Source of the DNA: a virus
Strand: one strand, 5' to 3'
Length of the DNA: 64,000 bases
Virus record (IMG/VR): IMGVR_UViG_3300022539_000516
Made by a program: the position numbers and the translations under genes. Below the pieces are notes generated by a model. That model was given only the letters and a program-made list of their open reading frames with translations, ran no database searches and was not told where the DNA came from. Every line of letters begins with the position of its first letter. Position 1 is the stretch's first letter. This document shows, in pieces, positions 790 to 54,330 of the stretch.

Positions 790-1943
790 GATGTATACAA
801 TAAATCTTAGATATGGCTATGCTTGGGCTATACCGCACGACATACGCAGGTCAGAAGAAGAAATAGAACAGATACGGAGAAGCGTAGGTGATGTTTGTTC
901 TTCTTGTATAACTCAGACTGTATGGGAGAGAGTTCTACATCCGTTACCGATGGCACAACTTATGCGGTGGGACTATTGGAATGACTATGTTGGGAATCGT
1001 TGGACTGGTCGTTATGTTGATAAGTTGGGACAAATGTGGGAGTATAGAACATTCAATATCAATGGAGAAAAACGTAAGATTAAGTGTGTAATTAACCTGG
1101 TTACAAAAAGAGATAAACAATATGAGATTATGTCAACTAAAAAATAAAAATTCATTTTTTCTAATTGAAGCACAAACAGGATGTACTTGTTGTTCTTCCG
1201 AAGACCATTTTCGAGGTCCGTATAAAAGTAAATCTGATGCAAAACGACGAATTGAATACTATCGTTCAAAAGATAGTAGATTTTGGCCTTTGGCATCGCA
1301 GTATGCAAGACGTGGTAGCTATAGTGTAAAAGAGATTTCATTTGAATTTATTTCAAAAAGACGTATAATTCTTGATGATAGATTTGTTGAAGACTTAAAA
1401 GATGTTCCAGAATTTATTAGAGTAAACGAAGATGGAACCGTAAAAGGTAATAAAGAATATTTCAACTGTATAGAGTTTTGAGGTCAATAATGATTGATAC
1501 AAATGAAGAATTTACGAAAAAATGTACGGTAAAAACAAAATCTTTAACAATCTATGCAAAAATAAAGACCTACGGTATTTCTGTTAAAGAAGTTCTTGTA
1601 CCAATTGTCATTCGAACAAATTTTCTTCAAAGGAGAAAAAATGGGCATATATGACACATACGCTGGAGAGATTCAACTGAAAGTCAATCTTTTGGCTGAT
1701 GAAATGAGAGATTTTGAAATAGGAGACAAAGTTCCTCTTGCAAATGGCGTATATCTTGGCTATGAAGGAATAGTAATAGTCAGAAACGGAGTATTTACAG
1801 ATTATTTTCCAGAAGAGTATTTATTTGATAAATATGGAGATAGAGTAGATGTAAAAGAAATACTTGATGAAGTAAGTCCCGTAGTTCAAGCTGTAAAGGA
1901 AGCAATAGAAAAAGAACGCACTCTATAAAAGTGGGGGTATAAA

Positions 1944-2411
1944 ATGTTCAATATTTTAGGGTGGATATTTACGTTTGTTGTTGTAATATTAATATATATT
2001 TTTATTTCCAAAATTAAAATGTTTAATCGTACTGGTAGAACCATAACTTTTGAACCAGAGGGAAAACATGTCCCTGATGAAGTAAAAGAGTTTTTGAATA
2101 ATCTTTCAAATAAGTGGAATGACTCAACTGAATTTGAAAAAATGACCGAGACTAATAGAAGAAATGCTCATATTCCTTCTTTTGAAGAAGAATCTGATGA
2201 AATGACTGTTAAAGTAATACATATTTATGTTCCAAAAGAAGCTTATCGTGCATTAAAAGCTCTTCAAAAAAGAGCTGGAGTTTCTTCAGAACAAGAGCTT
2301 ATAGGCAAAGCCTTCGCCTTTCTTGGATTGGGATATACCGTACTGGATAGTGGTCGTAAAATTGTTGCACTTGATGTAGAAGGACATTCTTACGATGAAA
2401 TAGATTTTTGA
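1944..2411 (+). CDS. hypothetical protein, N-terminal TM segment and C-terminal ribbon-helix-helix-like region
   Basis: hydrophobic N-terminus; VIHIYVPKEAYRALKALQKRAGVSS resembles an RHH strand-helix-helix. Confidence 0.4.
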   Translation: MFNILGWIFTFVVVILIYIFISKIKMFNRTGRTITFEPEGKHVPDEVKEFLNNLSNKWNDSTEFEKMTETNRRNAHIPSFEEESDEMTVKVIHIYVPKEAYRALKALQKRAGVSSEQELIGKAFAFLGLGYTVLDSGRKIVALDVEGHSYDEIDF

Positions 2412-3025
2412 TATGGTAGGTGAAAAATGTCTTCAACATGGGAAGAAGATGCTAAATATCGCCAAACAAAACGGATAGAAAAAGTATCTGAACTTTTGAT
2501 TAAGTTTATCGAGGATTCACCTGCGAAATTTCAGGATGCATTTAAGCATTATACAGAGAACGAAAAACTTATCAGAAAATTATTAAATGAACAAAAAGAA
2601 AATAAGAAACCTTAGAAAAAAGTATAACACCGAAAACATAGTTATACATTTGAAACTCAAAGCCACAAAGGGAAACTGGATTATATCCGATGATGGTAAA
2701 CAAATATTTATTTTTGACAAAAAACTCGGAGAAGTATCTTTACCAACAAGATATATTACTTGTATAAGAAGAATTAAAAACCGAAATAGGAGGATAACAT
2801 GAGTGAGTTTAGTATGGACGAATTGACAGCCATTGCCAAGAAAGCTGATGAAGCGTGTATTGAAAATGATAAGAAAGATGATATTTATTTCGCTTGGGCT
2901 TATGCAAGGTTAGCTGGTGCCGCTGATTCTTTGCATGCAATGATATGGCGCAGGAATAGCAGTATTGATTCTAAAGATAAAAAGTGTAATACATAAGAAT
3001 AGAATTTGGAGGATAAGAAAAAATA

Positions 3026-3484
3026 ATGTGTGAATTTCCATCCTGGATACGAAAATCAGGAAATAAAATCTTTTTCTTGATAGACAAGGATGCTGAAAAG
3101 TTAGACGTACCATACCAGGATGCTTCTAGTCATACAGCACTGGTTAAATTATTTGGTGAAGGTGAACATAAAGAAGGATATCCTGTTCCAAAAGAAATGG
3201 TAAGTGCAATTCAGTCCGGGAAGATGAAAAAAATTCTAGCAATTCATGGCTATAATAAAATGGTGTTTGACGAAAGTGGCTATTTACATGCAAAACATGA
3301 ATCTGCGTTAATCAAAGGTACAATAGGTTTCTGGTATAGACATGGGGTACTGCATCGCAAAAATGCCCCAGCTGTAGTATGGCCAAATGGCGAAAAATGG
3401 TTTTATGAGCATGGAAAACTATTGAAGAAGGAATCTATTGAAGAAGGAACCTTTTATAGCGGTAATGAAAAGGAGAATAAATGA
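3026..3484 (+). CDS. hypothetical protein with one LHRxDGPA-like repeat unit
   Basis: WYRHGVLHRKNAPAVVWPNGEKWFYEHGK. Confidence 0.55.
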   Translation: MCEFPSWIRKSGNKIFFLIDKDAEKLDVPYQDASSHTALVKLFGEGEHKEGYPVPKEMVSAIQSGKMKKILAIHGYNKMVFDESGYLHAKHESALIKGTIGFWYRHGVLHRKNAPAVVWPNGEKWFYEHGKLLKKESIEEGTFYSGNEKENK

Positions 3485-4081
3485 CTAGAGAAGAATTAGA
3501 TAAATTTGAGAATAAAGTTAGAGAACTATTGATTGAAACTGGAGTTGATTCAAATGACCCGATGCTTAAAAATGTAATAGATGTTTTTATTGTAGATGTA
3601 GAACAAAATTGGGTTGAATAGGAGAAGAAAGTGAAAATCATTCTTAATGCCGAATTTGACGATGTACCACATGGAGCATCGGACCTTTGTGGATTATTGG
3701 GAGCTTTAATTAGTAGAACCTGTTTGTACTACGGAGCATCTGCTCCAAAAGAGTTAACTTTTTCAGTCTATTGTGCGGGGGAAATCTATTCTATCACGAA
3801 ATCTCCAGGTTATATTGAAGCTGATGAGCATCCTCAAGATAAACGAATTCGTGAAATGGCAGAGGCTATTGAGGAAGAGAAGGGAAAAAAAGAGAAGTGA
3901 AAGATAATTGGACTAGGCAAAAAATATACGGTGTTTTTCTAGTCGCCAGAGAGACTGGTAAACAAATTGTAATTAAGCTATCACCACATGCAACATATCA
4001 TTTTACAGGAGGATTAGTTGAAAATATCCAACTTCGAGTTGAAGATATTGAAGTAATTGATATCGAGGAGGGCGATAAGAA

Positions 4082-4480
4082 ATGAAATGTTATAAAGTAG
4101 TATATATAGACAATGGTAAATTCTACAGTCTTTTTACTCCCATGAAAGGATTTGGTTTAGAATACCAATTAGGTAAAACCGTAAAAGCTAAAGTTGGAAA
4201 GTTATTCGTTTTTAAGACTCAAAAACAAGCCGAAGAATGGTGCGGATATTATGGAGCTATACTTGAATGTAAAACTAGAAGCATTGAACGTATTAATGAA
4301 ATAGCTTGGCCTCCAATCAGAGGTATGAGTTCAAATAATATTATAAAGTGGATGAAAGATGTTAAGTCTTTCTGGCAAGGACAATATAAAGGCACAATAT
4401 ATTTTCCACAGGGAACTTATGTAACCAAACAACTTACTCCGGTTAAAGTTGTATATCCAAAAAAGAGGAAAAATGAGTAG
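4082..4480 (+). CDS. YKVV paralog family member 1
   Basis: CYKVV, YQLGK, GKLFVF, ILEC, FW, PQGT, LTP motifs shared with 9 other ORFs. Confidence 0.85.
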   Translation: MKCYKVVYIDNGKFYSLFTPMKGFGLEYQLGKTVKAKVGKLFVFKTQKQAEEWCGYYGAILECKTRSIERINEIAWPPIRGMSSNNIIKWMKDVKSFWQGQYKGTIYFPQGTYVTKQLTPVKVVYPKKRKNE

Positions 4481-5461
4481 AAAGAAACGTCAAAAGGGAT
4501 GGTTAAAAGATGTGGTGTTACAAGCAAAGGAAGATGTAGAAAGTTGGCCAGTTTGGATGCAGGGTAAAGCTTGGAAGCAGGATAAAAAGAAAAAACCATT
4601 GAAAGAATATGTAAAATTACTTTATGCCCGTATATATTTAATGAGAAGAATTTCCAATTTGAAAGATGAAAGTCGCGGATGGGTATGGAAAAGAAAAGAA
4701 AAAATCGAAAGTTTAGAATATGCATTAAGTATACTCGATGCGGAATCTGAGCGAAGAGGAAAAGCTGAGAATGGCGGAGAATAATTTTGAATTGTCCATG
4801 CTGTGGAAAATTTATGTTACGAGAGGTAGATTTTGACGGACTTTGTATAATATGGAGATGCCCGGTTTATTTCGACGAATATCTGGACTATGAAGGTATG
4901 GATAAGGTTTGGGATGAAATAGATAAACAAAGAGGTCCGGAATGGCAAAAGATGGTAAATGAATTAGAACAATATCGTCAAAATCAAAACTGTAAAGGAT
5001 AAACAGTGAGCGAAGTTAACGGAGATTCTTTTATAATTTCTACAGAAAAACCGCAACAATGTGATTTTTGTAATAAAATAGCTGAATTACGACCCTATGG
5101 TCCAAATGAAGAATGTATTTGTCTTGAATGTATGAGGAAAAATCCTGCAATGGCAATTATACAGTTCTACAAACGAGTTGGAGATAAAACTGTATATAAA
5201 GATGGTAAGATTGTCGAAAAAATTCGTGACGAAGAAGGTTAATCATGGCACTAAATTTTATCATTATACTCCTTGGACATTTAATGTGGTGTTGTAAACT
5301 TATGGATAGACTTTTAAAAAAATTAGTAGGCCATAGTGGTACATGGCAAGGCGATATTGGAATGAAAATTGCTAAATTACTAAGACAATATATGTTTTGT
5401 GTAAAATATCTTGTATATAAAATTTCCTTCAAGATAACTGGAGAAAGAATGGAGGAGAAAA

Positions 5462-5614
5462 ATGAAAAAGTATTATTGTAAGAAGATTATTACTGACCTT
5501 GTTCTATGTTCCAGCACAACAGTCGCCACCAAACTGTTAAACCGTAAATATACTGGTATTGAAATCAACCTTGTTCATTGCAAGATAGCCGAGGAACGAT
5601 TGACACAGAAATGA
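5462..5614 (+). pseudogene. degenerate C-terminal remnant of an N4/N6 DNA methyltransferase
   Basis: translates to ...DLVLCSSTTVATKLLNRKYTGIEINLVHCKIAEERLTQK, matching the C-termini of the MTases at 21.6-25.2 kb with motif I (DPFxGSGTT) decayed; not in ORF track. Confidence 0.7.
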
Positions 5615-5999
5615 CAGAAAATGAACATAAAATACTGACGGTATTAAATGTTACTGGGGATATATCAATGGATAACCTTTTAACAGTAATAGGCAAAGAA
5701 GGATTAGATGAAGCTGAGGTACGCAAAATAGTAATGGGTTTGATAGATGAAGGTAAAATTATAACTACATGGAAAAGAGAATTAAGGGCAATAAGGAGAA
5801 TATAAAATGTTTGATACAGGGTCAGATGAAAAGCTGAACAGAATTATAGAGCTTCTGGAAACAAAGGTACATGACTGCAAATATAGAAAGATGTTGGATA
5901 GGTTGAAGACCGAAATGGGTACTTTCGGTACATCTACATTATTTTTTGAGGTTTTAGGCAAGATAGAAGCCGAGATGGAAAAAGAATAAAGGAGACAAA

Positions 6000-39078: not shown

Positions 39079-39501
39079 ATGAACGACATTTATTATACAA
39101 AAAGTTGCATAGGAATCAAAATCCCATATAGTAAACTATTCAAAATAAAAACAAGAGGATGTTCTCACTCTTTACCTACTCAGAAAAAAGCAAAATTTTG
39201 TATGTTTTGTGGAAAACGGTTATGGATAAACAATAAAGAATTAAATGAAAAGGATAATAAATTATATGGATTTGACTTTTTTACTAATTCAGCTTTTTTT
39301 GAAAAAGGAAATCCAAAATATGCTTTTATTGGAGTAATAATAAAAACTTTTTATGGAAATCCACCCACGGTACAAAAACTTCCAGATTTGTATATAAAAA
39401 ATATGAAATCAATAAAATCTGATTTAAAAAGAGCATTAACTCCCCTAAAATTATGGAAAGAAAAAGACTTCGGTGTATGGATTGTCATGTTAACAGAATA
39501 A
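39079..39501 (+). CDS. hypothetical zinc-binding protein, gene A copy 1
   Basis: CIGIKIPYSKLF, CSH, FCMFCG, LTPLKLWKEKDFG. Confidence 0.7.
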   Translation: MNDIYYTKSCIGIKIPYSKLFKIKTRGCSHSLPTQKKAKFCMFCGKRLWINNKELNEKDNKLYGFDFFTNSAFFEKGNPKYAFIGVIIKTFYGNPPTVQKLPDLYIKNMKSIKSDLKRALTPLKLWKEKDFGVWIVMLTE

Positions 39502-39512
39502 AAAGGAGAAAA

Positions 39513-39794
39513 ATGGACTCAACAGAATCTTACACACCTTCTTTGCAAGGGAAAATTAAGGTAACTGCTTGTAATTCTTTCAACTGTTCCCACAAAGAAG
39601 AATGTATTGGTAAATGGTTTAGAATAGATACAACAAAACTACCAATACAATATGGCAAAGACTACGAAAGACATTTTATAACACCTTGGAGAACATGTTG
39701 TATATGGAACTCAGGAGATGGAAAATGGTCTTACGAACTCGAAAAAGATACGTTACAATGTAAATGCCCAAAGGCTGCAAAACAAAAGAAATAA
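39513..39794 (+). CDS. Cys-rich hypothetical protein, gene B copy 1
   Basis: KIKVTAC..NCSHKEECIGKW, CCIWNS; ATG 39513 after AAAAGGAG. Confidence 0.7.
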   Translation: MDSTESYTPSLQGKIKVTACNSFNCSHKEECIGKWFRIDTTKLPIQYGKDYERHFITPWRTCCIWNSGDGKWSYELEKDTLQCKCPKAAKQKK

Positions 39795-39805
39795 GGAGGA
39801 GAAAA

Positions 39806-40228
39806 ATGAGTACCAGTTATTATGCAATAACCTGTATAGGAGCTAAAATTCCCTACGACAAATTATTCACAAAAACAAAAATAAGAGTATGTAATCACCC
39901 TTTACCAAAACAGAAAGAAGCAGAATTTTGCATGGAATGTGGAAATCCATTATGGAGAACCAAAGAGAAACCAATAAAAGAATACAACGAACCAAATGAT
40001 AAATTATGTGGACTTAATCTTTGTATTGTGGATAATCGCCTTGAAGATACAGAATATGTTTTTGTTGGAAAAATAGCAAAAGCTTCTCAGGAAGAACAAT
40101 TTATAATGACGAAATCTTTAGATTCAGATACAAAATGTCTAAAGTCTGTTCTTAAAAATGCATTAACACCTTTAAAGCTGTGGGAAGAAAAAGACTTTGG
40201 TATGTGGACTGTTTTGTATGCAATGTAA
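39806..40228 (+). CDS. hypothetical zinc-binding protein, gene A copy 2
   Basis: CIGAKIPYDKLF, CNH, FCMECG, LTPLKLWEEKDFG; ATG 39806. Confidence 0.7.
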   Translation: MSTSYYAITCIGAKIPYDKLFTKTKIRVCNHPLPKQKEAEFCMECGNPLWRTKEKPIKEYNEPNDKLCGLNLCIVDNRLEDTEYVFVGKIAKASQEEQFIMTKSLDSDTKCLKSVLKNALTPLKLWEEKDFGMWTVLYAM

Positions 40229-40242
40229 AATAATAAAGGAAA

Positions 40243-40584
40243 ATGATGATTAAGACAAAATCTTCTATCTCTCAAGAAAAAATTAAAGTAACTGCCTGTG
40301 CTAATATAAATTGTCTCCACAAAAAAGAATGTATTGGTAAATGGCATAAAATAGACCAAACAATTGAAACATATATACTCAAAAACGGTCATAAAATATA
40401 CCAAATACATTTTGTGGCTCTATGGAAAAGATTAAAAAGTTGTTGTATATGGAACTCAAAAGATAAAAAGTGGTCTTATGAACTTGAAGAAAATAAATCT
40501 TATTGGAGCCGAATGAAAAAACTAACTGGAGTATTTCTGGTATCACATGCAAAAAGACCCATGTACGGTAGCCTTTTTGTTTGA
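40243..40584 (+). CDS. Cys-rich hypothetical protein, gene B copy 2
   Basis: KIKVTAC..NCLHKKECIGKW, CCIWNS. Confidence 0.7.
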   Translation: MMIKTKSSISQEKIKVTACANINCLHKKECIGKWHKIDQTIETYILKNGHKIYQIHFVALWKRLKSCCIWNSKDKKWSYELEENKSYWSRMKKLTGVFLVSHAKRPMYGSLFV

Positions 40585-42594: not shown

Positions 42595-44361
42595 ATGATT
42601 GAAATTGATTCTTCAGTAGAAATAATGCATGCCTCCACTCGAAACGGAGAAACAGGAACAGTTGTTTCCGGATTAGACAGTGGCGACTGTTATATGATAG
42701 AATTTGCGGATGGAGAAAAACAAAGATTTTACAAAAGTTATGTAAAACTCGTTCCACTTCGAATAGGACAAGAAATAATAATAGCAAAAGATTTCCATAG
42801 AGAAGGGAAAATTGGAAAAATAAAAGATATTTGCGGTAGTGACCCCACCTGCAGAATTGTAATTCTTAAAGACGGAACAGTAGACCATTATCCACTAAGT
42901 GCATTACTCCCCTATAAAGGCAAAGGACTAAAATCTTCTAAAGAAGAACCTCATATTTTATTAAAAATAAATATTGGAAATCAAGAACTAGAAAAGTTTT
43001 TAGGAAAAGACAAAATAGCATATAATTGTGCCAGAACTTTTCTCTATGACATTATTATGAATTGTAAAGAAGATAAATATGGTCAACAAATAAAAATAGA
43101 TAAGGAAGGAGTTAAAAAATTAAGAGAGATTTTTCCATTATCTTTAGAAGAGGATAACGTATTTACAATTGATACTGGAATTTATCTTATGGGAGAAAGG
43201 TCTTATGTATCCGGTCTTTATACATCGAATAGAATGAAATTTTTTGAAAGATTTTTTAAAATAGCTCTTTCTTTAAATAAAATAAAAAATATATTTAAAA
43301 ATAAAGAAATATATATAAAATTTGAATTTGATGGAGTCTCTTTGAGAGATATCGTTGGAAATAGTAGACTTTTAGGAATGCAAAATTCTTTAATAATAGT
43401 CTTTCACGGAAGAAATAACTATACAAACAATATATTTCCTGTAGAAGATCGATATTCGTGGTATAAACCAACATGGGGAAAACCTATAATCTATAACCAA
43501 ATTGTGGGAGGAACATCAAAAATCCAAAACGGAATAACTGTAATTGAATTATGTATAAACACTATATTCTATATGGCCAACAGGTCTGAAGAAGAAGCAG
43601 AAAAACTTTTACATATTATTTTAGAACTAGCTTATAAAAAAGACCCTGCAATACAAATTGATTCCGAAGAAGCAGAAAAACAATTAAAAGAATTTTTTTC
43701 TTCAAAAAATAGAAACATCAAGGATAATATATCTACTGCACATATAGTGATTGCAGACTCAATGTGTAAGATAAAACAACAATATGATAAAATCTCAGAA
43801 ATGGCATTTCAATTGACAAGATTGGAATCTAAAACTGACGAAATAAAAACACTATCAGAAGTAAATGGGGTAAAACATGTATTCCTATCCGAAGAAAAAA
43901 TCCTTATTATAACAAAAGATATAGTTTTTGGACTCGAAAACTTTGAAGGAGAACCCCTAGAACTACCTATGGGTCCATATCTAATCTCAATAGATGTCAG
44001 GAATACGCAAATAAGTGTCATTCCTTACGCAGATAAAGTAATACATCCATTTCATCCTTATATAACACGTAACGGGAAAGCATGCTACGGTAATTATAAG
44101 GAATTTATTATCGAAGCTTTAGGAGAAATGGATTATCATAATCTTGTCGGTTATCTTTTGGAGTGGTTGGAAAAAAGTTATAACACTACCGAAAGACCAG
44201 AAAATGACCTTCAAATCTTTATAAAAAGAGCTACAAGAATAAGAAAAAAACAGCCAGAATTAACTCAACGAGAAGAAGACAGTATAAGAGATGGTATTTC
44301 TACTGATGAAGAAGAGGAAGAGGAAGAAGAAGAAAATACTTCGGAGTCCGACAACTCTTAA
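42595..44361 (+). CDS. prokaryotic E2 (ubiquitin-conjugating-like) protein with N-terminal tandem SH3-like domains
   Basis: HPYITRNGKAC has the exact spacing of the UBC HPNIxxxGxIC motif (Cys497, codon 44083-44085); acidic tail. Confidence 0.75.
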   Translation: MIEIDSSVEIMHASTRNGETGTVVSGLDSGDCYMIEFADGEKQRFYKSYVKLVPLRIGQEIIIAKDFHREGKIGKIKDICGSDPTCRIVILKDGTVDHYPLSALLPYKGKGLKSSKEEPHILLKINIGNQELEKFLGKDKIAYNCARTFLYDIIMNCKEDKYGQQIKIDKEGVKKLREIFPLSLEEDNVFTIDTGIYLMGERSYVSGLYTSNRMKFFERFFKIALSLNKIKNIFKNKEIYIKFEFDGVSLRDIVGNSRLLGMQNSLIIVFHGRNNYTNNIFPVEDRYSWYKPTWGKPIIYNQIVGGTSKIQNGITVIELCINTIFYMANRSEEEAEKLLHIILELAYKKDPAIQIDSEEAEKQLKEFFSSKNRNIKDNISTAHIVIADSMCKIKQQYDKISEMAFQLTRLESKTDEIKTLSEVNGVKHVFLSEEKILIITKDIVFGLENFEGEPLELPMGPYLISIDVRNTQISVIPYADKVIHPFHPYITRNGKACYGNYKEFIIEALGEMDYHNLVGYLLEWLEKSYNTTERPENDLQIFIKRATRIRKKQPELTQREEDSIRDGISTDEEEEEEEEENTSESDNS

Positions 44362-44372
44362 TAGGAGAAAAA

Positions 44373-44966
44373 ATGACAGAAAATCAAGATTTTAAAATAC
44401 CAGACTTGAGAGCAAGAAGAAAAATGAACAAAAATGCGACAGAGAAATTAATATCTAAAATGAGTACAATGGCAAAAGAATTAACGCCCAAAGTAGTTGC
44501 AATAGACGGAGATAATAAAGAAGTTATTAAAAAAAATAAACATTATATTGAAGCCCACAAAACACTTCCAGAAAACTATCAATTACTTTCAAATCAAGAA
44601 TTAACTCAATTAGGAAAAGAATTACTAAATACAAAAACATCTATTAGAAGAAAAGAAAAGATACTTTTAATTCTTGCCCACAATGGAAACTGGAAAGCTC
44701 TCCGTCCACTAGAAATGTATGTTAAAAATCCAGATAAAGGAATGCGTATTTTGGCAGAACTTGCATTTGAAGAATGTAGATTCTGGTTTGACAAAGACCC
44801 ATACGAGAGAAATCCGGAAGAACAAGTTTATCTAGGGTTTGAAGCTAAAAAACCTTGTCCATGTGGTAGTAAAAAATTGTTCAAGGAATGTCATGGAAAA
44901 CTTCCGTATGGACCGCCTGCGGAACAACCAAAATGTAAATTACAAGTCAAAAAGGAGAAAAAATGA
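44373..44966 (+). CDS. SEC-C zinc-motif protein
   Basis: KKPCPCGSKKLFKECHG. Confidence 0.8.
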   Translation: MTENQDFKIPDLRARRKMNKNATEKLISKMSTMAKELTPKVVAIDGDNKEVIKKNKHYIEAHKTLPENYQLLSNQELTQLGKELLNTKTSIRRKEKILLILAHNGNWKALRPLEMYVKNPDKGMRILAELAFEECRFWFDKDPYERNPEEQVYLGFEAKKPCPCGSKKLFKECHGKLPYGPPAEQPKCKLQVKKEKK

Positions 44967-45982
44967 TATTGTGGATAAAACCTTTTGCGCTCAAAAAACT
45001 AGAACTTTTTTATGAAAAAGCTGATGGAGAAATAAGTGGTTTTGGAGTAGTAAAAAAAATTAATGGAGAATTAGTAGTATATGATGTTTTCATATTCAAA
45101 CAAGAATGTGGTAGAGCAAGTACCGAAGTAGACCCTTCAAAAACATTGGATTATATAGAAGAACACCCCGATTCTTTAGAAGATATAAAATTGTGGTGGC
45201 ATACGCACAAAAACTTTGACGCTTCTTGGAGTAGAGACGATGAAGAAACAATAGAAACCCTTATTAGTATCCCTGATTGGTTTATAAGTATAGTTATAGG
45301 TAGAGATGAAACTCTTGCAAGATTTGATATGTGTAATCCATTTAGAATTACAGAAGGCGATATCGAAATTAGACCAAGAATAATCTTTTCTGAAGATATG
45401 CTTAAAAGGATAACTAAATGGGTTGAAAAAGAAATAGAAGAAAAAGTAGTAGAAAAGAAATATGGTCTTGCGACAGTGGATTATGAACATCTTGGATTTA
45501 AAAGAACCGATTTAACTCCTGCAGAAATTGCAGAAATTCCTGTATGTCACTCAATTGAAGAATTTAATAGACGCCAGAAAGAATTATTTGGTTCTGCTGC
45601 ACATTTAGTAGACAAGGATGCTATTGATTTAGCAAATTTTCCACGAGAAGATTGCGAGGAAGAAGAAAAAGAGGAAGAAAAAAAAGAAGAAGGAAAAGAT
45701 GGGGGAAAAAAAGAAGGAAAAAACGAGAAAAACGATAAGAAAGAATACAAATTTGGAAACGAAATATATTATAAAAAAGGAAAAAACGAGAAAAACGATA
45801 AGAAAGAATACAAATTTGGAAACAAAATATATTATAAAAAAGAAAAAAAAGAGAAAAACGATAAGAAAGAATACAAATTTGGAAACAAAATATATTATAA
45901 AAAAGAAAAAAAAGAGAAAAAAGACGATAAAGAAGAAAATAAGCAGGGATACATATTACCCGGAAGGATAAAACGAGCATAA
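44963..45982 (+). CDS. JAB/MPN+ (JAMM) metalloisopeptidase
   Basis: EISGFG plus HTH-x7-S-x2-D (HTHKNFDASWSRDD), a complete JAMM motif. Confidence 0.88.
   Translation: MILWIKPFALKKLELFYEKADGEISGFGVVKKINGELVVYDVFIFKQECGRASTEVDPSKTLDYIEEHPDSLEDIKLWWHTHKNFDASWSRDDEETIETLISIPDWFISIVIGRDETLARFDMCNPFRITEGDIEIRPRIIFSEDMLKRITKWVEKEIEEKVVEKKYGLATVDYEHLGFKRTDLTPAEIAEIPVCHSIEEFNRRQKELFGSAAHLVDKDAIDLANFPREDCEEEEKEEEKKEEGKDGGKKEGKNEKNDKKEYKFGNEIYYKKGKNEKNDKKEYKFGNKIYYKKEKKEKNDKKEYKFGNKIYYKKEKKEKKDDKEENKQGYILPGRIKRA
45725..45913 (+). repeat. 63-bp tandem repeat x3 (plus a partial copy) in the JAB tail
   Basis: units start at 45725, 45788, 45851, partial at 45914; encode EKNDKKEYKFGN(E/K)IYYKK(G/E)K(N/K). 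Confidence 0.95.
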
Positions 45983-46003
45983 TGGTGAAGTAAAAAAACA
46001 AAT

Positions 46004-46759
46004 TTGATTAATATGGACTTAACCAGACAAACAGACATAATCCATCGAAATAAACTCTGTACACCTTGTACAGTAGTAGGTGCTGGAGCAATTGGTAGCT
46101 TTGTAGCATTAACCTTAGCAAAGATGGGAATACCAAGAATAGATATATTTGACAAAGATATAGTAGAAGAAGAAAATCTACCAAATCAGTGGTTTAAACT
46201 TGATGCTATTGGAAAAAAGAAAGCCTATGAAACAGAACGTTTAATCAAACAATTTTCTGATTCGACAATATTTGGGCATGCAAGGAATTTAGAACCAGAA
46301 AATTTTGGAAAACTAAAAGAATTTATTCATCCAATAGTAGTATCATGTGTAGATAGTATGAAAGTGAGAAAAGAGATTCTTGATTTTTTAAAGAAAAAAA
46401 TAGAACACAAATTATTCATTGATGCAAGGATGGCAGGACAAGTAATAAATGTATTAACAATTAACCCAAAACTAAATAGTGATGTATGGTTTTATGAGCA
46501 ACATTGGTATTCTGATTCAGAAGCTGTACAAGAAAGATGTACCGAAAAAGCAATAATATATACCAGTACAATAGCAGCTGGCCTTATTTGTAATCAGGTC
46601 AAGAAGTTTCTTAACGGAGAAAAACTTAATAGAGAAATTATCTTTGATGCACAAACTTTAGAATTTATTATAGAAGAAGATATATCTCCAGAAACCCCAG
46701 CGCAAACCCCTGAAATACCAGACTATGAAGTTGAAGAAAACGAAGTATACCAAGAATAA
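46004..46759 (+). CDS. ThiF/E1-like adenylyltransferase (Ubl-activating enzyme)
   Basis: VVGAGAIGS, DKDIVEEENLPNQ, GKKKA, CVDS, DARM, candidate catalytic Cys in QERCTEK. Confidence 0.92.
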   Translation: MINMDLTRQTDIIHRNKLCTPCTVVGAGAIGSFVALTLAKMGIPRIDIFDKDIVEEENLPNQWFKLDAIGKKKAYETERLIKQFSDSTIFGHARNLEPENFGKLKEFIHPIVVSCVDSMKVRKEILDFLKKKIEHKLFIDARMAGQVINVLTINPKLNSDVWFYEQHWYSDSEAVQERCTEKAIIYTSTIAAGLICNQVKKFLNGEKLNREIIFDAQTLEFIIEEDISPETPAQTPEIPDYEVEENEVYQE

Positions 46760-46792
46760 ATTGCCATTTTTGAACGAAAGGAGGTGAAAATA

Positions 46793-47002
46793 ATGGAAAT
46801 TTCTGTAACCATCTCTACCCTTGGAAAGGGTACGATGAAGCAAAAAGTGCGTCAAGGTTCGACTGTAGCAGATGTTATCAAGAAGATTGGTGGAGCACCA
46901 GCTAACTTCACTGCCAGAATAAGGGGCAATACGGTTCCTCTGGAAACGAAGCTGAAAAAGGGAACAAAAATCATCTTGGCGCCAAAAGCAAAGGGTGGTT
47001 GA
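46793..47002 (+). CDS. ubiquitin-like beta-grasp protein with C-terminal Gly-Gly
   Basis: 69 aa, GSTVADVI...LKKGTKIILAPKAKGG-stop; AAAGGAGGTGA RBS. Confidence 0.88.
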   Translation: MEISVTISTLGKGTMKQKVRQGSTVADVIKKIGGAPANFTARIRGNTVPLETKLKKGTKIILAPKAKGG

Positions 47003-47008
47003 AAAGAC

Positions 47009-47048
47009 TAACACCCTCTACGGATTTCAAAATTCGTAGAGGGTGTTA
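47009..47048. terminator. 14-bp hairpin after the Ubl gene
   Basis: TAACACCCTCTACG / CGTAGAGGGTGTTA; no + strand U-tract. Confidence 0.55.
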
Positions 47049-47106: not shown

Positions 47107-47607
47107 ATGAAAAAACTAGGTATTATATTTGTTCTTTTTCTTATCTTTTGCAGTTGTCCTTCAGCAAAAAACCTATTAAACACTTCGTATTCTGAATTAG
47201 GTATAACTCTTGGAACTCCATGCGGACTAAATCTGGCTGCCGGAAATTGGCATGGTAGATTTGGAATAAAAGCAACAGGGATGTTTTATGCACCTGGTGT
47301 ATATGGACTCCAAACCACTTTGGGATTTAAATTATCAGACAGCCATAAAATTCGTCATGGTGTAGGACTTGCTTTTGGAAGTATGCAATTAGAATATACT
47401 GACTGGATGTCCGCAGGAATTGTTTACAATATGAATGTAAAAGGATTCTTTTTTGAAGCTGGACTTGCAGTAGGAAGATTCACAGAAGAATCCTTTTATA
47501 TTCATGGAGATTATTTTTATTCATGTTCAAGTAGTTCTACATCTCCACATCTTCTTCTTCAAATTGGCTACATACACCGTCTTCTTCCAGAAGTTGGAGT
47601 AAATTGA
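47107..47607 (+). CDS. exported/lipoprotein, outer-membrane beta-barrel-like
   Basis: signal peptide with FCSC; alternating Gly/aromatic beta-strands. Confidence 0.55.
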   Translation: MKKLGIIFVLFLIFCSCPSAKNLLNTSYSELGITLGTPCGLNLAAGNWHGRFGIKATGMFYAPGVYGLQTTLGFKLSDSHKIRHGVGLAFGSMQLEYTDWMSAGIVYNMNVKGFFFEAGLAVGRFTEESFYIHGDYFYSCSSSSTSPHLLLQIGYIHRLLPEVGVN

Positions 47608-53093: not shown

Positions 53094-53466
53094 TAGTAAT
53101 TTATCACACCACAACCATGAAACACCACAGGTTGCTCCGCTTTTAAAAAGGAGAAATCATGGAGAAAACCGTAGGAGAAAAAATATCTTCCGTAATAGTT
53201 ATAATAGTTATTGTACTTATCGTTACCTCCATACTTATATTGTTTGTTAGATATTCAATTTTTATTGAACCTTACATAAGAGAAGATTGGAAAATAGTAT
53301 ATACAGACGGAACTGTGGAAGAATTTATAGGTTTAAAACATAAAGAATACGGATTAAAATATTTTATTGTAAGAGATGCTAATGAAAAAGAAATTAAACG
53401 AATACACAATACTGCTATACAAAGTGCTAGTAGAACTAAAAGATATAATTTAAAATGGGAGAAAAA

Positions 53467-53895
53467 ATGACAGTATATAAAGTTTGCAGGAAAACTAAGG
53501 ATAAAAAGTATATAAGTGCGATAACTGAAAAAAAATATCAAATAAGTTACCGTCTCGGAAAAACAATAAAAAGAAAATTAATGCTTCCTCTTGTATTCGA
53601 AACTATTGAAGATGCAAAAATTTTTATCGGTATATATGCAAACCCTAATAATTGTTTTGTCATTCTAAAATGTAACGCATATGGCATACAAAAAATAAAT
53701 TATATAGTTGGATGTTTTGATTGCACTCTATTCCGAAAATTCTGGAATCTATTTGGGAAAGATAAAGTTTTTGTAGAAACTGGTATAACCGGTAAAAAAG
53801 ACAAAGACTACATCAACAAAGAATACATACACACTTATATCGTACCATCAGGAACTTTAGCTGTCAAAGAATTAACACCAATAGAAGAAATATAA
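53467..53895 (+). CDS. YKVV paralog family member 8
   Basis: VYKVC, YRLGK, LVF, ILKC, FW, PSGT, LTP. Confidence 0.85.
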   Translation: MTVYKVCRKTKDKKYISAITEKKYQISYRLGKTIKRKLMLPLVFETIEDAKIFIGIYANPNNCFVILKCNAYGIQKINYIVGCFDCTLFRKFWNLFGKDKVFVETGITGKKDKDYINKEYIHTYIVPSGTLAVKELTPIEEI

Positions 53896-53916
53896 TAATT
53901 TACAAAAGGAGAAAAA

Positions 53917-54330
53917 ATGATAGTATATAAGGTCTGCAAAAAAATTGAAGATGGAAAATACAAAAGCGCCATAGTAACAAAAAAATATGTAATAATCTAC
54001 GAATTGGGAAAAACTATATGTAGAAAATTAATGCTCCCTCTTATATTTAAAACTATTGAAGATGCAGAAAGATTTTCATATCTAGCTTTTACTCGTCGTT
54101 CAACTGACATCGTTATTCTAAAATGCAAAGCATCTGGTTTGGTAAAAATAAACATTCTAGTTGACTTTATGAACGAAGAAAAATTTCGTAATTTCTGGCA
54201 TATTTATAAAAAAATGAAGTATGATAGAACAACCGTATCATTCCGGGAAAATAATCTGTATACATATAACGCTCCGATGGGTACTTTCGGAGCAGAAGAA
54301 CTAACGCCGTTAGAAGAAATATCCTGCTAA
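53917..54330 (+). CDS. YKVV paralog family member 9
   Basis: VYKVC, YELGK, ILKCKA, FW, PMGT, LTP. Confidence 0.85.
   Translation: MIVYKVCKKIEDGKYKSAIVTKKYVIIYELGKTICRKLMLPLIFKTIEDAERFSYLAFTRRSTDIVILKCKASGLVKINILVDFMNEEKFRNFWHIYKKMKYDRTTVSFRENNLYTYNAPMGTFGAEELTPLEEISC

Follow-up and report, generated by a model that had tools for sequence, protein, structure and literature searches.

A phage gene cassette with the predicted parts of a ubiquitin-like protein conjugation system

In an uncultured marine-sediment phage (record IMGVR_UViG_3300022539_000516), of which we analysed a stretch of 64,000 nt (the window), five genes on the + strand form a tightly packed block at positions 42595-47002. 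As shown by an ORF check, all five are present, co-oriented and adjacent, as the original prediction had claimed, with intergenic gaps of 11-33 nt; the second and third overlap by ATGA and are translationally coupled. The block encodes, in order, an E2-like conjugating enzyme with a predicted UBC-fold C-terminus (42595..44361, 588 aa), a SEC-C motif protein recognised by Pfam SEC-C (44373..44966, 197 aa), a JAB/MPN+ (JAMM) metalloprotease assigned by family profile and active-site residues (44963..45982, 339 aa), a minimal E1-like adenylating enzyme recognised by Pfam ThiF (46004..46759, 251 aa, TTG start), and a ubiquitin-like modifier (Ubl) with a SAMP2-like profile match (46793..47002, 69 aa; ORF 46784/46793-47002). 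A GGAGG precedes the ATG at 46793 by 8 nt, which makes a Ubl of 69 aa the likely reading. Directly 3' of the Ubl stop codon, a perfect 18-bp stem-loop was found on the + strand (47009..47048; dG -27.7 kcal/mol, z -9.2), and none of 200 shuffles folded equally stably. No U-tract lies 3' of this hairpin and a consensus terminator scan gave no flag there; it probably marks the 3' end of the operon, as a terminator or an RNA-stabilising hairpin. The end coordinate of the original prediction, 47048, coincides with its end. Elsewhere in the window, PHROG matches pointed to genes for a helicase, a primase, an exonuclease, an RNase H and a methyltransferase, and the operon belongs to the early/replication part of the phage. 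The 64-kb window contains neither a capsid nor a terminase gene, so the assignment to a phage rests on the replication-module genes and on relatives in IMG/VR and in cultured phages, which support the earlier description of the genome as phage-like.

The E1 consists of one ThiF/MoeB-type adenylation domain, without a separate catalytic-Cys domain, and matched Pfam ThiF (PF00899) with E=2.4e-22 (79.7 bits; cut-off 28.1). Its profile matched Uba1, ThiF, UBA3, UBA5 and MccB at about 1e-13 to 1e-12. Over 98 sequences, the three Gly of G26-x-G28-x-x-G31 together with D50, D52, N58, Q62, K73, D117 and R122 are 98-100% conserved, and Cys179, which sits in a (P/R)-C-T motif, is 100% conserved. The GxGxxG motif and candidate thioester Cys expected for this protein are both in place; the thioester itself is inferred, and by analogy Cys179 could equally serve ThiF-like acyl-disulfide or persulfide chemistry. 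The window Ubl ends in PKAKGG followed by the stop codon and would, from its sequence, be already mature, with GG exposed. On its own it gave weak Pfam matches (TGS, ThiS, SAMP2). A 20-member Ubl profile, in turn, aligned end to end with P. furiosus SAMP2 (5lda_B), terminal GG included, at E=1.2e-10, followed by PF1061, H. volcanii SAMP2 and ubiquitin. This family profile upholds the proposal of a 69-aa beta-grasp protein with a terminal GG. In relatives, most Ubls end in KGG plus 0-3 further residues, and about ten related loci encode head-to-tail di- or tri-Ubl precursors, polyubiquitin-like, which make sense only with proteolytic release of the reactive Gly.

The E2-like protein has several regions. 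Residues ~1-110 gave weak signals of a tandem SH3/KOW/Tudor-like region, a reading that is itself weak, since only weak matches and a low-confidence Atlas model support it; the middle region is an orphan, residues ~357-422 form a long coiled-coil helix, and residues ~403-550 a predicted UBC-fold domain with H487-P488-Y489...C497-x-G499. The motif HPYITRNGKAC spans residues 487-497, with an H-to-C spacing of 10, the same as in UbcH5/UbcH7. Taken alone, the window protein had no match to Pfam PF00179 (UQ_con) at E <= 0.1, did not pass its gathering threshold, and had no Prok-E2_A-E matches; among sampled relatives, 2 of 18 and 3 of 38 matched UQ_con weakly (best 2.4e-4). An exhaustive search of 1.84 billion representatives returned 16 relatives, all aligning to residues 316-580. 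The family profile aligned over its full length with UbcH7 at E=3.7e-5, and the HPN and Cys positions superposed. Across 91 family members, C497 and G499 are 99% conserved, the Pro 93% and the His 80%, and 18 of 61 members carry Cys-rich C-terminal tails.

AF2 models of the E2 region reached pLDDT 83 and 86. Compared with 48,161 PDB chains by VIA-align, the best 50 matches were all UBC/UEV/RWD folds and, among the matches listed, the best 19 were E2 enzymes, headed by Ube2S (Z 7.5, rmsd 3.9, 128 aa aligned of 151). The Z-scores were middling (7.2-7.5), and the top Foldseek matches were E2s but weak (E 0.03-0.04, TM 0.51-0.54). A standard UBC core has four strands ahead of the active-site loop; the model has six, and the two additional strands are read, on the model, as an extra beta-hairpin. 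The fold search and the alignment of HP..C497 to UbcH7 agree with the predicted E2-like domain of exact UBC spacing, and on these models the C-terminus is taken to be a UBC-fold E2.

The JAB catalytic domain covers about residues 1-140, with the metal-site residues E23, H80-x-H82, S90 and D93; its C-terminal tail is low-complexity and Lys/Glu-rich and contains 21-aa repeats, encoded by a 63-nt tandem repeat (3.4 copies) at 45710-45921. The window protein alone matched Pfam Prok-JAB weakly (E=0.002, 18.3 bits), under the gathering value of 25 bits. A 12-member family profile matched Rpn11-like 6fju best, at 1.4e-12, followed by Rpn11, CSN5, AMSH and PfJAMM1 (the last at 7e-5), and the E/H/H/S/D site is 97-100% conserved in 95 sequences. 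The intact E..HxH-x7-S-x2-D motif reported earlier is thus real, and the protein is predicted to be an Rpn11-like JAMM metalloprotease with an intact E/HxH/S/D site. Pairs of Ubl and JAB are known from phage tail modules (PMC1779556), a precedent for a non-conjugating assembly or processing device (lambda TAPI/TAPK-like) in which the E1 and E2 would be structural or inactive. We give this reading hardly any credence: no tail genes lie nearby, the block is in the replication region, and the invariance of the E1 nucleotide-binding/Mg residues and of both catalytic Cys argues against inactive scaffolds.

The body of the SEC-C protein is helical (HEAT-like), and its C-terminus carries a CPCGSKKLFKECHG zinc motif, which scored above the Pfam gathering value (22.5 vs 20.4 bits, E=1e-4); its nearest Atlas cluster is 'SecC family' (score 0.91). 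A SEC-C-like ORF was absent from all 100 related loci examined. The original prediction had counted this gene as part of the operon: the ORF and its motif are genuine, but the gene is a window-specific accessory outside the conserved module.

We also collected relatives of the E1. IMG/VR gave 84, whereas a set of about 186,000 species genomes gave only 16, every one of these in a MAG; viral contigs, of 10-200 kb, make up about 84 of roughly 100 occurrences. In 86 scanned sources (the window and 85 fetched loci, of which one is a duplicate and some are truncated at contig ends), the E2-like partner was found in 73, the JAB in 82 and the Ubl in 74. The order Ubl-E2-JAB-E1 was seen at 46 loci and E2-JAB-E1-Ubl at 10; in six further loci the E2 of this second order is doubled. 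Because about 80 independent viral contigs share the four-gene core, a synteny that the original prediction had proposed looking for in viral databases, its co-occurrence is far beyond chance. Apart from the core, no gene family was common to more than 12 of the scanned loci. The exception to this ceiling is an antisense shadow ORF within the E1 gene in 18 loci. The E2-JAB-E1-Ubl core is a conserved mobile module that behaves as a self-contained unit moving between unrelated backbones. Among cultured phages, the one Xanthomonas jumbo phage examined carries Ubl, E2-like and E1 genes together, and for the E1 alone there were also matches in one Erwinia and two further Xanthomonas jumbo phages; Xanthomonas phage PhiXhv-15 is one of the cultured carriers, and GenBank labels the phage homologues 'thiamine biosynthesis protein'. 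Flanks were examined for five cellular relatives: one cassette (L089) has the surroundings typical of ICEs, with TraG/TrwB, DUF932 and methylase genes, one (L094) adjoins KwaA/KwaB-like genes of the Kiwa type, one is decayed, and two lie among ordinary cellular genes. No paper describing an E2-JAB-E1-Ubl phage cassette was found in a literature search.

Archaeal SAMP2-type Ubls serve both as sulfur carriers and as modifiers. The E1 might thiocarboxylate the Ubl for phage-directed nucleotide, tRNA or cofactor modification, in the manner of ThiS/ThiF, MoaD/MoeB or SAMP2/TtuB. The best Ubl matches (SAMP2, ThiS, MoaD) and the best NCBIfam matches of the E1 (ThiF models) are of this type, as are the GenBank labels, and one locus (L002) adjoins QueD-like and radical-SAM genes. 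Against this, the E1 fell under every NCBIfam equivalog cut-off (best PRK08644 ThiF, 64.9 vs 159 bits; MoeB models, 31.8-40.3 bits vs 266-377; UbaA, 34.8 vs 450) and lacks a rhodanese domain. The block is free of genes for thiamine, molybdopterin or tRNA thiolation, and none of the first two kinds lie nearby, in agreement with the earlier observation; no conserved sulfur-acceptor enzyme lies nearby. The conserved partners are instead an Rpn11-like isopeptidase and an E2 whose Cys is 99% conserved, and poly-Ubl precursors exist among relatives. We rejected the ThiF/MoeB sulfur-carrier equivalogs on the sub-cut-off scores and the absence of thi or moa genes from the block, and regard a sulfur-carrier role as very improbable.

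The cassette was further compared with known conjugation systems. BilABCD (ISG15-like anti-phage systems of bacteria, Type I/II) consists of Ubl, E2, JAB and E1 without an E3; its JAB matures and deconjugates the Ubl, and its E2 is thought to pick targets itself (PMC10557695; bioRxiv 10.1101/2023.09.04.556158). The phage cassette has the same four parts, likewise without an E3. In contrast, the E1 BilD, at about 500 aa, has several domains (inactive and active adenylation domains, a mobile Cys domain and a PF14459 N-terminus), and BilB lacks an HPN motif and uses a Cys and a downstream His (PMC10557695; bioRxiv 10.1101/2023.09.04.556158). The cassette E1s have a single adenylation domain of 220-250 aa (251 in the window), the E2 has a eukaryote-like HP(H/N)-x7-Cys, a long coiled coil and a variable N-terminus, and the carriers are mainly phages. 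Bil structures 8TZ0/8TYZ were not among the best 60 E1 profile matches, and 8tz0_C ranked 20 for the E2 model (Foldseek TM 0.17-0.24). Membership in BilABCD was rejected on the one-domain 251-aa E1, the lack of a PF14459 match and the HPx motif of the E2.

The SAMP2/UbaA/JAMM1 system (PDB 5LDA complex) is similar in that the Ubl profile fits SAMP2, the JAB profile matches PfJAMM1, and the E1 is small and MoeB-like. Archaeal sampylation is E2-independent, whereas a UBC-fold E2 is a conserved partner here. With UBC E2s (PF00179; UbcH7/UBE2L3, Ube2S) the cassette E2 shares the fold, the HPx...Cys spacing and the helix after the Cys; it differs in that the Asn of HPN is usually His in the family and Tyr in the window, helix 1 is lengthened to a coiled coil about 65 residues long, and the N-terminal regions are big and variable. 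PRTRC of plasmids and ICEs (NCBIfam TIGR03734-03742) is likewise a mobile-element cassette with a small ThiF-family E1, and the surroundings of L089 are ICE-like and include DUF932; PRTRC was rejected, as TIGR03736 scored 37.7 bits for the window and 36.8-47.3 for cellular relatives against a cut-off of 144.75. No cassette protein matched the other PRTRC models at E <= 0.1, and there is no ParB.

In CBASS, Cap2 combines E1 and E2 in one fused protein, and its target is a CD-NTase. Both Cap2/Cap3 and Bub resemble the cassette in E1, E2 and JAB-type chemistry within conflict systems. Cap2/Cap3 was rejected: E1 and E2 are separate genes, and the block neither contains nor adjoins a CD-NTase gene. 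PADLOC E1-E2 models align to the Rossmann part of the E1 only (residues 23-116), and five PADLOC CBASS 'E2' models match the SEC-C motif only. Bub uses poly-Ubl precursors, as do some cassette relatives. Its intermediates are Ser oxyesters, its E1 has no catalytic Cys, and BubE is a serine protease (PMC11601596); it was rejected because E2 Cys497 (99%) and E1 Cys179 (100%) are conserved and the protease is a JAMM metalloprotease. The likeness to Bil/Bub and Cap2/Cap3 suggested originally holds for the E1/E2/JAB/Ubl chemistry, but not for kinship with Bil or Cap2/3. Failing the Bil, Bub, CBASS Cap2/3, PRTRC and ThiF/MoeB tests, the cassette is best called a separate family, a new and mainly virus-borne variant among the prokaryotic Ubl conjugation systems.

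From homology, the minimal, homodimer-type E1 would adenylate the C-terminal Gly of the 69-aa Ubl. UBA5 is a small E1 that carries its Ubl on Cys, and the Ubl would probably move in a similar way onto Cys179. The thioester would then be handed to Cys497 of the E2, which may place the Ubl on lysines of target proteins. No E3 is encoded in the block; target choice is probably built into the long, family-variable N-terminal extension of the E2 (here the putative tandem SH3/Tudor-like barrels), and the SEC-C zinc protein, encoded between the E2 and JAB genes in the window only, may assist it. The Rpn11-like JAB would strip the tag from targets and, in relatives, would also mature Ubl precursors with 1-3 extra residues or tandem poly-Ubl. 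The conjugation chemistry is well supported by inference; the thioesters and conjugates, and the existence of targets, are deduced without experimental data.

As the operon lies in the early/replication region, action during infection on host proteins or competing elements is expected. We consider it probable, without being certain, that the cassette is a phage-encoded Ubl conjugation system acting in this way, in host takeover or counter-defence, and this purpose is the least certain step of the proposal. Its biological role, be it counter-defence, competition or self-modification, is inferred only, as the original prediction had also put it. A part in defence would suit the ICE-like and Kiwa-adjacent relatives no less than one in counter-defence. 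Every characterised bacterial E1/E2/JAB/Ubl operon acts against phages (PMC10557695; bioRxiv 10.1101/2023.09.04.556158). Bil tags the tail fibre of the invader. With the same chemistry, the cassette could be a defence or exclusion module against competing phages rather than a tool against the host, as its movement between unrelated backbones and the settings of L094 and L089 would also allow. The mainly viral occurrence, which includes cultured jumbo phages (lifestyle unchecked), speaks against this, as do the position of the window cassette outside any lysogeny or moron region and the single defence-island adjacency, whose KwaA match is under the NCBIfam cut-off (49.5 vs 100 bits). We regard defence as unlikely, yet far from negligible, and prefer action by the phage on host proteins or competing elements.

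A bolder form of this preferred reading is possible, and we put it forward only tentatively, as rather doubtful: tailed phages, from 40-kb marine to jumbo, would carry a complete eukaryote-like ubiquitination pathway (HPN-type UBC E2, Rpn11-like isopeptidase, polyubiquitin-style precursors), used early to tag proteins of the host or of rival phages, and in the window the E2, through its own SH3/Tudor-like targeting domains and with a private SEC-C zinc adaptor, would work as an E2-E3 hybrid. If this is true, both sides of the phage-bacterium conflict would use Ubl tagging as a weapon, and phages would be a possible viral reservoir of UBC-type E2s.

The predicted conjugation operon lies at 42595-47002, where five ORFs follow one another on the + strand, separated by 11-33 nt except at a single ATGA overlap, in keeping with the original prediction of five adjacent, co-oriented genes at this place. 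They encode an E2-like protein (gene A, 42595-44361, 588 aa), a SEC-C protein (gene B, 44373-44966, 197 aa), a JAB protein (gene C, 44963-45982, 339 aa), an E1 (gene D, 46004-46759, 251 aa) and a Ubl (gene E). Gene E ends at 47002 and could begin either at GTG 46784 (72 aa) or at ATG 46793 (69 aa); the ATG is more likely, because GGAGG sits 8 nt ahead of it. The Ubl C-terminus reads ...PKAKGG, followed by the stop. Directly 3' of this stop we found a perfect 18-bp hairpin (47009-47048; dG -27.7 kcal/mol, z -9.2), which has no U-tract on the + strand and may be a variant terminator or serve to stabilise or process RNA. Promoter and terminator consensus scans gave no more sites than shuffled sequence did, and hence we claim no promoter. 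The surrounding 64 kb are AT-rich (~32% GC), with nearly all genes on the + strand. The first ORF after the operon (47107-47607) has a lipoprotein-like signal sequence at its start (MKKLGIIFVLFLIFCSC) and had no family match in Pfam or PHROGs. Tandem duplicate gene pairs were also seen (39079-39501 with 39764-40228, 39453-39794 with 40243-40584, and 53455-53895 with 53917-54330); the duplicated genes at 39079-40584 and 53455-54330 have no relatives in the other loci.

Single-sequence searches with the E2 region (Pfam, PHROGs, PADLOC, PDB) returned nothing useful, and family profiles alone worked. When 1.84 billion representatives were scanned exhaustively with HMMER, only 16 relatives emerged, each aligning to residues 316-580 of protein A. 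Family alignments revealed an invariant Cys within HP(H/Y)-x7-C-x-G-N, and over 91 sequences C497 and G499 were conserved at 99% and P488 at 93%. UBC E2s ranked top when an 18-member profile was compared with the PDB, yet E was about 0.05. With 38 members, the profile matched UbcH7 over the full domain at E=3.7e-5, superposing HPN and the catalytic Cys, and the best 60 PDB matches were E2s without exception (60/60). Among sampled family members, five gave weak matches to Pfam UQ_con and none matched the Prok-E2 families. AF2 models of residues 330-565 (pLDDT 83) and 400-565 (pLDDT 86, pTM 0.79) contained a long helix, six strands, the HPx-Cys loop and C-terminal helices. Foldseek E values for these models were weak (0.03-0.04), but mostly E2s were listed, with TM up to 0.54. 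In an unbiased VIA-align comparison with 48,161 PDB representatives, the top 50 were all UBC, UEV or RWD folds, the best being Ube2S (Z 7.5, 128/151 residues aligned). Combined, the sequence-profile and structural evidence establish a predicted UBC fold for the C-terminus of protein A at the level that computation allows, as had been proposed from the sequence alone. In motif and fold, this E2 comes nearer to eukaryotic UBC enzymes than do the described bacterial Prok-E2 families.

The N-terminal extension of the E2-like proteins is highly variable, with the catalytic Cys at positions 53-1327 (median 314). In the window protein, residues 1-110 gave weak matches to DUF4926 (E 0.002) and L21e (0.014), and their structural neighbours in the Atlas were Spt5 KOW, KIN17 SH3 and RapA Tudor; on this weak evidence they look like tandem SH3/KOW/Tudor-like barrels. 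Long, CxxC-dense C-terminal tails are present in 18/61 E2-like proteins (e.g. P0006, P0012, P0014, P0015 and L104:1816-4494) and are possibly zinc-binding E3-like modules. In contrast to these relatives, the window has a separate SEC-C zinc-motif gene behind the E2. Its product scored above the Pfam SEC-C gathering threshold at residues 160-176 and resembles small helical HEAT-like bacterial SEC-C proteins (Atlas score 0.91). The gene is thus adjacent and co-oriented with a genuine SEC-C match, as first described, but it is missing from all other loci examined: it is an accessory gene unique to the window rather than a member of a conserved operon. Its product could serve as an adaptor in trans, but this is speculation. 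Five PADLOC CBASS 'E2' models match this protein only at the zinc motif (residues 157-177, best E 1.4e-4), and because the matches are confined to that motif, some CBASS E2 models seem to have a SEC-C-like motif at their end. The E2-CBASS paper mentions neither SEC-C nor a zinc motif.

The E1 matched Pfam ThiF at E=2.4e-22 and consists of a single adenylation domain only. It fell far under all NCBIfam equivalog cut-offs, reaching 64.9 bits against 159 for ThiF, 34.8 against 450 for UbaA, 37.7 against 144.75 for PRTRC_ThiF and 43 against 320 for 6A-MBL cap2_3, and it was likewise under that for MoeB. A five-member E1 profile found Uba1, ThiF, UBA3, UBA5, MccB and PaaA at near equal strength (~1e-13 to 1e-12) and Cap2 more weakly, with no Bil E1 among its best 60 matches. 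On these scores, we place the E1 on a branch of its own within the E1 superfamily. A ThiF-type E1 beside a small protein ending in GG could also belong to a sulfur-carrier system; this reading is unlikely, and the cassette did not meet the defining features of ThiF/MoeB or UbaA. Nor did it meet those of Cap2/3, Bub or PRTRC, each of which was tested, or those of Bil, although BilABCD has an equal architecture. Over 98 E1 sequences, C179, G26, G28, D50, N58 and K73 were conserved at 100%, G31, D52, D117 and R122 at 99% and Q62 at 98%. Cys179 lies in a (P/R)-C-T motif, at a position which we take to correspond to the reactive Cys of canonical E1s and ThiF.

By itself, the JAB protein gave only a weak Pfam Prok-JAB match (E=0.002). 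A 12-member family profile found a Caldiarchaeum Rpn11-like protein best (1.4e-12), followed by Rpn11, CSN5, AMSH and PfJAMM1. E23, H80, H82, S90 and D93 were invariant in the 12-member alignment, and over 95 sequences E23 was kept at 97%, H80 at 98%, and H82, S90 and D93 at 100%. The C-terminal tail of the JAB protein contains a 63-nt tandem repeat (45710-45921; 3.4 copies, 97% identity), which encodes 21-aa KEYKFGN-type units and appears to have expanded recently. Only one further assembly has this gene, and that assembly breaks off inside the gene. The Ubl showed weak TGS, ThiS and SAMP2 matches. A 20-member Ubl profile aligned with P. furiosus SAMP2 from end to end, including the terminal GG (E=1.2e-10), and further matched PF1061, H. 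volcanii SAMP2 and ubiquitin. The original prediction of a ThiF/E1 with GxGxxG and a candidate thioester Cys, a JAB protease with an intact motif and a 69-aa beta-grasp protein with an exposed GG was therefore supported on all three counts. In related loci, the Ubl typically ends in KGG plus 0-3 residues, and some variants have KGN or KGA. Head-to-tail di- or tri-Ubl fusions, resembling polyubiquitin genes, occur in about ten loci, and every unit of these ends in KGG or KGN (tandem polyproteins at L055:1884-2516, L025:6888-7298, L040:7925-8338, L060:6690-7103 and L072:3447-3863). Such precursors imply a need for proteolysis to free the reactive C-terminus.

Relatives were sought in IMG/VR with the E1 profile, since no stretch of the E2 alignment was conserved enough, and 84 were found, of which 80 were retrieved. 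Gene content was then compared in the window and 85 loci (these 80 and L001-L005; L006 duplicates L001), using HMMs from seed loci iterated over six-frame ORFs. The E2-like gene was present in 73 of these sources, the JAB in 82 and the Ubl in 74. Ubl-E2-JAB-E1 is the order in 46 loci, whereas 10, the window among them, have E2-JAB-E1-Ubl; six further loci show the latter order with a doubled E2. The biggest family beyond the four core ones was an antisense shadow ORF within the E1 gene (18 loci), and no other flanking family was common to more than 12 loci. We therefore regard the cassette as a self-contained module that occurs on varied backbones, and its core recurs among viral contigs, where the original prediction had proposed a search for synteny. 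Blastn of the operon against GenBank phages gave no match and an exact 42-mer of it was absent from IMG/VR, so the window's own contig is not in those collections.

The window is metagenomic, from marine sediment, and protein A is on record in one contig of 50-200 kb and one 10-kb Logan contig. Phage-type genes of the window include a helicase, a primase, a PD-(D/E)XK exonuclease, RNase H and NUDIX, along with three genes for DNA methyltransferases and one for a conserved PHROG whose function is unknown; the 64 kb contain neither a capsid nor a terminase gene. Flavobacterium phages were the most frequent matches of the helicase, and the closest cellular E1s were from Bacteroidota and Ignavibacteriota MAGs, from which we infer a likely host in this group. 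A search of 185,579 species, each represented by one genome, gave only 16 loci; all lie in MAGs, and most have the full cassette. Five of these were inspected for flanks or state. In L089 (242-3706 and 8037-8993), on a 4.5-Mb chromosome, the cassette adjoins a TraG/TrwB T4SS coupling protein, a DNA methylase and DUF932/TIGR03299, an ICE-like setting; L090 and L092 have ordinary cellular genes around it. In the Ignavibacteriota MAG locus L101 (3803-6631, 1.1-Mb contig), the E2-like gene and the E1 gene have both broken into two ORFs, which makes this a decaying copy. In L094 (2132-3600), the cassette adjoins KwaB-like and weak KwaA-like (Kiwa) genes. That the cassette is a defence or exclusion module is the main rival to the reading that we favour, in which it acts early in infection, on proteins of the host or of competitors; its purpose is not settled.

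Cultured phages also carry these genes. Tblastn with the E1 detected 74 GenBank phage records; E1 homologues of GenBank phages carry the label 'thiamine biosynthesis protein'. HMMs identified a Ubl ending in ASGG, an 892-aa E2-like protein and an E1 in Xanthomonas jumbo phage PhiXhv-15; for Xanthomonas jumbo phages PhiXhv-12 and PhiXhv-16 and Erwinia phage Ep032, the evidence is a tblastn match to the E1 only. Among Bacteroidota phages, a JAB-E1 pair lies between primase and exonuclease in Flavobacterium FpV4-group (FpV4, gp50-gp53) and crAss-like Kehishuvirus phages ('tikkala', 1240-5645), preceded by a ~420-aa protein with a GYMHSH...C motif and a protein whose Ubl-like N-terminus ends in KSGG or KSGA and is followed by a long extension. 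We do not assign the ~420-aa proteins as E2s; hhalign against the E2 family covered the active-site region without significance (P 0.004, probability 8%).

By computation, the E1, E2, JAB and Ubl have intact, selected active sites and their genes travel together; function as a conjugation system is inferred. From family knowledge, the E1 would adenylate the Ubl Gly and, like the small E1 UBA5, probably take up the Ubl as a thioester on Cys179, since canonical E1s and ThiF have their reactive Cys at what we take to be the corresponding position. The Ubl would then pass to Cys497 of the E2 and next to target lysines, and the JAB would remove the tag and, in relatives, also mature Ubl precursors. 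The absence of an E3 from the cassette, the highly variable N-terminal extension and the Cys-rich tails of some relatives suggest that the E2 itself recognises the targets.

The catalogue of Iyer et al. (2006) covers bacterial E1/E2/JAB/Ubl operons and Ubl-JAB pairs of phage tails, but not this cassette. It also goes unmentioned in a comparative paper on jumbo phages; the nearest precedent, an Asgard-virus paper, has E1-like genes only, and our full-text literature search turned up no account of a phage E1/E2/JAB/Ubl cassette. Collectively, our results identify a variant of the prokaryotic Ubl conjugation systems that is new and borne mainly by viruses, in the window with a unique SEC-C gene, and support the original prediction of a phage-borne protein-tagging operon, with function inferred. 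This function is directly testable, as cultured carrier phages exist and many family Ubls end in K-G-G, so that trypsin should yield the Lys-epsilon-GlyGly remnant enriched in standard ubiquitin proteomics. Prokaryotic Ubl conjugation is currently seen as a weapon of bacteria against phages (CBASS Cap2, Bil, Bub). A separate family that is carried mainly by viruses and keeps its catalytic residues intact would mean that phages themselves employ Ubl-conjugation chemistry.
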